This document shows, piece after piece, positions 8,553-9,331 of a stretch of 64,000 nucleotides of DNA (positions within the stretch are counted from its first letter, which is position 1; each line of letters opens with the position of its first letter). The DNA comes from Escherichia coli. GTDB lineage: Bacteria; Pseudomonadota; Gammaproteobacteria; Enterobacterales; Enterobacteriaceae. The stretch lies in the NCBI RefSeq assembly GCF_003334305.1, contig NZ_QOWS01000011.1; one strand, written 5' to 3'. The position numbers and the translations under genes are program-made. The notes under the pieces were generated by a model that was not told where the DNA came from, searched no databases, and worked only from the letters and a program-made list of their open reading frames with translations.

Positions 8553-8779
8553 GACGATTCCGTATTGGTATTATTTTTGCAATATGCCAACAGGTACTGA
8601 AATCTTTGTCTAATAGAGATTTCTTATGACGCAGTATTGTTGATCAATAATCTCCAGGCTTATCAAACAGGTTGAATTAACTCCGCGCCCTGGTTTTTGA
8701 CATTACCTACCGCGCGCGATACCGGGTGCCAGGTGAACTGGTTTGCTGGAACACAGCCACTGGCAGCAATTTCAGAGGC

Positions 8780-9331
8780 TTATTTACCGCTAATCTCTTG
8801 CCGCATCCATTCCCGCGCAGCTTCTGGCGACAGTACCAGCGGGCGGCGGTCATGAATATCTACCAGACCCTGGTCTGCTGCTGCAGTGACAATTAAAAAT
8901 CCTTCGGCTTCGTCACCACGCTCAAACGGTGTGCTACCTATCGCGGCTATAAAAACAGGTTGTCCATCAGCGCGATAGATAAAATAAGGCTGTTTTTTGT
9001 CGCCTTCTTTTTTCCACTCAAACCAGCCATCGGCAAAACAGATTGCCCGACCATGTTGCCAGAGCGGTTTAAACATACGACTGGTTGCGGCAGTTTCTAC
9101 GCGGGCGTTAATCAGCGGCGGTTTATCCCACCATCCGGGAGCATATCCCCAGAAAACCGGATCCAGATGAAGGTGTTCATCACGTTCACTGAGCAGAAGG
9201 ACTTTGGTTCCCGGCGCGACGTTGTATCTGCCAATGGGTTCGGGATCATAGGGAATATCGCGTTCAATATCTTCCGCGAGAAGCGCAAGGTAATCTTCAC
9301 GCGTTTGGGATTGGGCAAAGCGTCCACACAT
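8780..9331 (-). CDS. yedK: SOS-response-associated peptidase (SRAP) YedK, apparently C-terminally truncated (183 aa; in-frame TAA followed by 38 further sense codons)
   Basis: Translation begins MCGRFAQSQ (catalytic Cys2); stop TAA at 8780-8782 is followed in frame by ASEIAASGCVPANQFTWHPVSRAVGNVKNQGAELIQPV and then TGA-TAA at 8660-8665. Confidence 0.8.
   Translation of the reverse strand: MCGRFAQSQTREDYLALLAEDIERDIPYDPEPIGRYNVAPGTKVLLLSERDEHLHLDPVFWGYAPGWWDKPPLINARVETAATSRMFKPLWQHGRAICFADGWFEWKKEGDKKQPYFIYRADGQPVFIAAIGSTPFERGDEAEGFLIVTAAADQGLVDIHDRRPLVLSPEAAREWMRQEISGK

Follow-up and report, generated by a model that had tools for sequence, protein, structure and literature searches.

The yedK gene on the 64,000-nt stretch of Escherichia coli DNA analysed here (the window) carries a nonsense mutation at codon 184 (E184*) and is very probably an inherited pseudogene, with a predicted loss of function that is tolerated. 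The lesion is a single G-to-T transversion by which GAA (Glu) became TAA in an E. coli yedK haplotype that already existed. It is inherited, and it removes residues 184–222 from the translated product.

On the minus strand the yedK reading frame begins with ATG at 9331–9329 and runs through 183 sense codons (MCGRF...EISGK, 9331–8783) to TAA at 8782–8780. Past this stop the frame stays open for a further 38 sense codons (ASEIAASGCVPANQFTWHPVSRAVGNVKNQGAELIQPV, 8779–8666), up to TGA at 8665–8663 and TAA at 8662–8660. The codon sum of 183 + 1 + 38 equals 222, the length of reference YedK. The earlier note had reported the in-frame TAA, the 38 codons behind it and the double stop, and every coordinate and count that it gave holds. 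The features of the locus are listed below.

8663–9331, minus strand: the yedK pseudogene in full, comprising 222 codon positions and the original TGA (the RefSeq/PGAP limits in strains A7 and GF131).
8783–9331, minus strand: the 183 sense codons that are still translated, Met1–Lys183, with Cys2, Asn75, Glu105, His160, Arg77, Thr149 and Arg162 kept (from translation, structure alignment and profile matches).
8780–8782, minus strand: codon 184, now an ochre stop (TAA) that ends the frame early; the base affected is nucleotide 550 of the gene, window position 8782, T here and G in the ancestral allele.
8666–8779, minus strand: 38 orphaned codons for residues 185–222, predicted to form most of helix 182–191, strand beta12 (199–203) and two short helices, with Arg206, Asn210 and Val211 (from translation, an AF2 model and PMC6821365).
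8660–8665, minus strand: the original tandem stops, TGA at 8665–8663 and TAA at 8662–8660, which K-12 and E04 share.

By chance alone, 38 consecutive codons would be free of stops with a probability of (61/64)^38, or ~0.16, which is not exceptional. Here the run is meaningful because it is homologous to the YedK C-terminus: 37 of its 38 residues are identical to residues 185–222 of K-12 YedK, and all 38 are identical to the C-terminal end of P0016, a YedK protein known from E. coli. The 38 codons contain no ATG, GTG or TTG in frame, the nearest to a start codon being ATT (n = 2), and therefore the tail is not separately expressible; re-initiation giving a separate tail peptide was rejected on this ground. 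A scan for promoters and terminators over 7900–9800 returned one promoter-like and one terminator-like signal, against 2.7 and 2.0 expected from shuffled sequence, and gave nothing on co-transcription or polarity between yedK and yedL.

When the stop is bridged, the protein aligns end to end with E. coli YedK structures (6kcq, 2icu, 6nua and others), which are 222 aa long and have Glu184; full-length yedK comprises residues 1–222 (PMC6821365). The reconstructed protein with E184 is moreover found exactly in public data, as P0016 on 19 contigs. Across the 672 nt of yedK, five assemblies (L007, L008, L010, L011 and L012) differ from the window at nucleotide 550 only, where they have G (GAA) instead of T, and therefore the cause is a single G-to-T transversion. 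The 222-aa length and the GAA-to-TAA change at E184 had both been proposed in the earlier note, and both are borne out. Aligned at the DNA level, K-12-type and E04 alleles likewise have GAA at the position of the window's TAA, together with five other differences in the tail, all of them synonymous. Reference YedK thus does not end at ...EISGK, an outcome that had been named beforehand as one that would count against a truncation. With four T's separating the window from K-12/E04 (nucleotides 550, 558, 564 and 567), a multi-nucleotide event was considered and discarded: the synonymous T's at 558, 564 and 567 belong to a common haplotype whose 69-nt GAA version is found exactly in 100 complete genomes, and only the change at 550 is new.

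The GAA-haplotype strains (L007–L012), at 1 nt in 672 from the window within yedK, differ from it by 27–56 nt (0.9–1.9%) in the 3 kb upstream, and downstream of yedK they have, in place of yedL, a porin gene and then genes resembling ybcM and ybcL. Since the flanks differ around a near-identical yedK, the same haplotype occurs in more than one genomic background, a pattern compatible with recombination at the yedK locus. In the yedL–fliE intergenic region of the window, a 150-nt stretch on the minus strand (7673–7822) is near-identical to an E04 fragment that PGAP annotates as an 'integrase' pseudogene. This stretch is unannotated in A7 and GF131, and it may be the scar of an old integration at this variable locus.

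Turning to the carriers of the allele, the window's first 25 kb and another 37.5 kb of it match E. coli A7 (from orangutan faeces, USA) at 100% identity. The same yedK allele occurs in GF131 (chicken meat, Switzerland) and in GCA_902810225.1, whose sequence is identical to the window over 3.5 kb. These three are identical throughout the 672-nt gene, with zero further changes among them. The exact 183-aa product is present on 80 contigs and in 111 index blocks, and ~80–110 public assemblies, from different hosts and continents, carry the allele. Along window positions 1–27458 (~27.4 kb) GF131 shows three SNPs, and it has a prophage without a counterpart in A7; thus it is a distinct strain of the same clone. 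The best explanation of this distribution is that the E184* allele had a single origin and has been inherited within one clonal lineage that includes A7, GF131 and GCA_902810225.1.

The three SNPs between A7 and GF131 (18320, 18559 and 18569) all fall inside 250 nt of fliZ (plus strand, 18180–18731). Two are synonymous and one changes S127 of the window to F in GF131; a small patch of recombination, or local selection, could account for the clustering. The GF131 prophage is lambdoid (L013:27519–50000), with genes for an integrase, RepO, a helicase, a Q antiterminator, holins and a terminase. It lies directly after the Gly-Cys-Leu tRNA cluster, whose tRNA-Leu(taa) is at 27302–27388 of the window. 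From 27459 the window, like A7, lacks the prophage and runs directly into yecA, tyrP and ftnA.

The lack of additional changes in 672 nt among carriers indicates that the allele is young, and the earlier suggestion of a recent nonsense allele was right. As a test for selection on the tail, evolution within the carriers has no power, as there are zero differences among them. The lack of further decay therefore shows the youth of the allele only, and a dead gene and a working shorter gene are not separable by evolution here. The allele is already annotated. In both A7 (AOY58_RS13335) and GF131 (ACHP5R_RS08790) RefSeq/PGAP flags yedK as a pseudogene with an "internal stop" and the product 'SOS response-associated peptidase'. 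This agrees with what is expected of an internal-stop pseudogene of the PGAP type: both sides of the stop (1–183 and 185–222) align to the 222-aa YedK, and the lesion recurs across assemblies. In the GenBank entries of other carriers, submitters list the 183-aa ORF under the name 'hypothetical protein' (GCS29682.1, GDC58729.1). A literature search found no report of this yedK E184* allele. It is an ordinary, inherited, lineage-specific nonsense pseudogene.

Next, we considered what the stop removes. By profile the 183-aa product still belongs to the SRAP/YedK family, with a score above the curated NCBIfam cutoff (NF007413, 421.8 bits against 349), matching profile positions 1–183 of 222 compared with 1–222 for the full-length protein. 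The nucleophilic Cys at residue 2 (MCGRF...) is present and is invariant in 63 homologues. Asn75, Glu105, His160, Arg77, Thr149 and Arg162 are all present as in K-12 YedK and are near-invariant in the same set. Kept in YedK(1–183) are thus the catalytic residues Cys2, Asn75, Glu105 and His160 together with W67, W68, R77, T149 and R162, the residues at which mutations abolish ssDNA binding; Arg206 and Asn210 were not in that mutant set (PMC6821365). The earlier note had held that Cys2 and the SRAP core were both retained and that the protein may work without its tail. The retention of Cys2 stands. The other two points are not supported, as residues 1–211 of the full-length protein span the whole of the Pfam SRAP model (PF02586, 1–214 of 214) and the 183-aa product matches positions 1–182 of 214 only (E = 3.7e-47). 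The segment that completes the SRAP domain, comprising beta12 and V204, V208, N213, L218 and P221, is missing from the translated product, and its codons are found only past the stop.

The conservation of this segment was assessed from a search of 1.84 billion representative proteins that gave 15,318 hits, of which 62 diverse full-length sequences (31–58% identity) were aligned with P0016. Positions 198–212 are occupied in 63 of the 63 aligned sequences (P0016 included); since homologues were picked for full-length alignment, this occupancy is biased, and residue conservation is not. Conservation among the 63 is 95% for V204, 92% for V208 and 70–79% for N213, L218 and P221, and the mean information content is 2.28 bits/site over 198–216 against 2.05 bits/site over 1–183. 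An AF2 model built on the homologue alignment (mean pLDDT 93.8) has an ordered tail (pLDDT ~98) with a helix at 182–191, a strand at 199–203 and helices at 206–209 and 216–219. In the crystal structure YedK has twelve strands, with beta12 lying within the flat sheet that positions Cys2, and Arg206, Asn210 and the main chain of Val211 touch phosphates and sugars of nucleotides on the 3′ side of the ssDNA (PMC6821365). Because of the Pfam span, the conservation, the predicted order, beta12 and the ssDNA contacts, the lost segment is an integral and conserved part of a single-domain fold and not a dispensable tail.

We therefore favour the following course of events for the pseudogene. The G-to-T change at nucleotide 550 of the gene (window 8782) creates TAA at codon 184, and translation ends after Lys183. 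The product lacks the last 39 of 222 residues, and with them the greater part of the last long helix, beta12 as the final strand of the Cys2-positioning sheet, and the 3′-side contacts of Arg206, Asn210 and Val211. The truncated YedK would probably be misfolded, unstable or defective in DNA binding, such that abasic-site crosslinking would be lost, and this loss would be tolerated since yedK is dispensable in E. coli. Loss of YedK function is the most likely consequence of E184*; we infer it, as we infer its neutrality, from the extent of the deleted part and the frequency with which yedK is lost.

That frequency is considerable. A yedK match is present in 5,378 of 5,426 complete E. coli genomes and absent from 48. 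The match covers at least 80% of the gene in 4,257 genomes, and nearly all of those below 80% belong to a class of ~1,100 (of the 5,378) that keeps only nucleotides 1–437, the 3′ part being absent. In one example of this class, 20Ec-P-124 (L004:4001–4426, corresponding to window 9331–8895), PGAP annotates a pseudogene 'missing C-terminus', and the fragment adjoins helix-turn-helix, IS200/IS605 and IS5 pseudogenes, followed by ybcM, ybcL and emrE (DLP12-like). Thus yedK has suffered at least three independent kinds of lesion: the E184* point mutation, the truncation at nucleotide 437 (~20% of complete genomes) and absence (48 genomes). A yedK deletion strain is viable and has been used in published phage-defence assays, and a literature search found no strong yedK phenotype reported. 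Given that yedK is often lost, a neutral, lineage-specific loss is unremarkable.

At the very end of the gene a further pattern was seen. In some genomes (matches H63, H79, H84–H86 and H91) the yedK match stops at nucleotide 668, inside the TGA (the equivalent of window 8660–8665), and the annotation places a TnpB/InsQ gene of the IS200/IS605 type under the match or beside it. This suggests that the extreme 3′ end of yedK is a site of repeated insertion.

Several other readings of the premature stop were weighed against an inherited loss of function. That the strain truly has GAA and the TAA arose in sequencing or assembly, where the earlier note had allowed for a sequencing error, has a negligible probability. 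In its favour is the a priori possibility that any single-base difference is an error. Against it, the same allele is found in three separately deposited assemblies, at least two of which are demonstrably distinct strains, and the product recurs on the 80 contigs and in the 111 index blocks; moreover, the change is a substitution and not a homopolymer indel. Sequencing error is thus excluded. The same note had also raised read-through, and programmed or suppressor-mediated decoding of the TAA could restore a 222-aa YedK from the 38 downstream codons, which are undamaged and encode the same protein sequence as a functional allele. We regard this as very unlikely. The codon is UAA, whereas Sec is decoded from UGA and Pyl from UAG, and the next base is G. 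The stop is confined to one clone and the identical haplotype elsewhere has GAA, as do K-12 and E04, so that there is no lineage-wide conservation and no conserved recoding site. The window's three tRNAs, Gly(GCC), Cys(GCA) and Leu(UAA), include no suppressor, and the intactness of the tail is explained by the youth of the allele, given the zero other changes among carriers. Selenocysteine recoding, a candidate prompted by the neighbouring selenium genes yedE and yedF, was dismissed because the codon is TAA instead of TGA.

A more substantial alternative is that YedK(1–183) folds without its last 39 residues and still crosslinks, in full or in part, which would make the allele a hypomorph or variant and not a pseudogene. 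All residues that mutagenesis identified as catalytic or as essential for DNA binding precede residue 183, the product scores above the NCBIfam cutoff, and the allele persists in ~80–110 assemblies from varied hosts and continents. However, the truncation takes away 32 of the 214 Pfam model positions, a stretch that AF2 models as ordered and that is no less conserved than the core. It is kept in all 63 diverse full-length homologues, and it includes beta12 of the sheet bearing Cys2 as well as three residues that contact ssDNA. Persistence, moreover, is equally expected under neutral loss, with a larger truncation of yedK standing in ~20% of complete E. coli genomes. We therefore consider a functional or partly functional fragment unlikely. 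A related proposal, which we hold to be doubtful, is that recurrent loss of yedK is adaptive, that is, favoured and not merely tolerated, or that the 183-aa fragment has residual or altered activity. Were adaptive loss true, stable YedK–DNA crosslinks would cost fitness in some niches.

Taken together, these data point to E184* as a mutation that very probably inactivates a gene which many E. coli strains lack anyway. By itself it matters little, being a routine strain-level pseudogene. It nevertheless marks the A7/GF131 clone cleanly, and it calls for caution with those GenBank records in which the 183-aa ORF is presented as if intact, under the name 'hypothetical protein'. The natural truncation could also be used to ask whether the SRAP fold needs the beta12 segment for abasic-site crosslinking. 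That about one-fifth of complete E. coli genomes are without an intact yedK is mildly interesting for the in vivo role of YedK.

The closest known system is YedK of E. coli K-12 (SRAP; PDB 2icu, 6kcq and 6nua; PF02586; NF007413), which is encoded at the same locus, yedE-yedF-yedK-yedL beside fliE. Residues 1–183 of the window's YedK show only three differences from PDB 6kcq (F116Y, I125V and M127I), and the catalytic residues are all present. Codon 184, however, is GAA in K-12 and TAA in the window, whose product is without residues 184–222. The A7 and GF131 pseudogenes that carry the locus tags given above are identical in sequence and are the same feature as the window's yedK. The common 3′-truncated yedK (e.g. 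20Ec-P-124, CPZ02_RS10990) is likewise a natural inactivation of the gene that PGAP annotates as a pseudogene. It differs in kind, being cut at nucleotide 437 by a rearrangement that lies beside IS and prophage-like remnants, with the 3′ part absent, whereas the window has a point mutation with the 3′ part intact. Human HMCES has a homologous SRAP domain and the same Cys2 thiazolidine crosslink chemistry, plus a disordered C-terminal extension. The dispensable 'tail' of HMCES is located after the SRAP domain. In contrast, YedK is without such an extension, and residues 184–222 lie within the SRAP domain itself.
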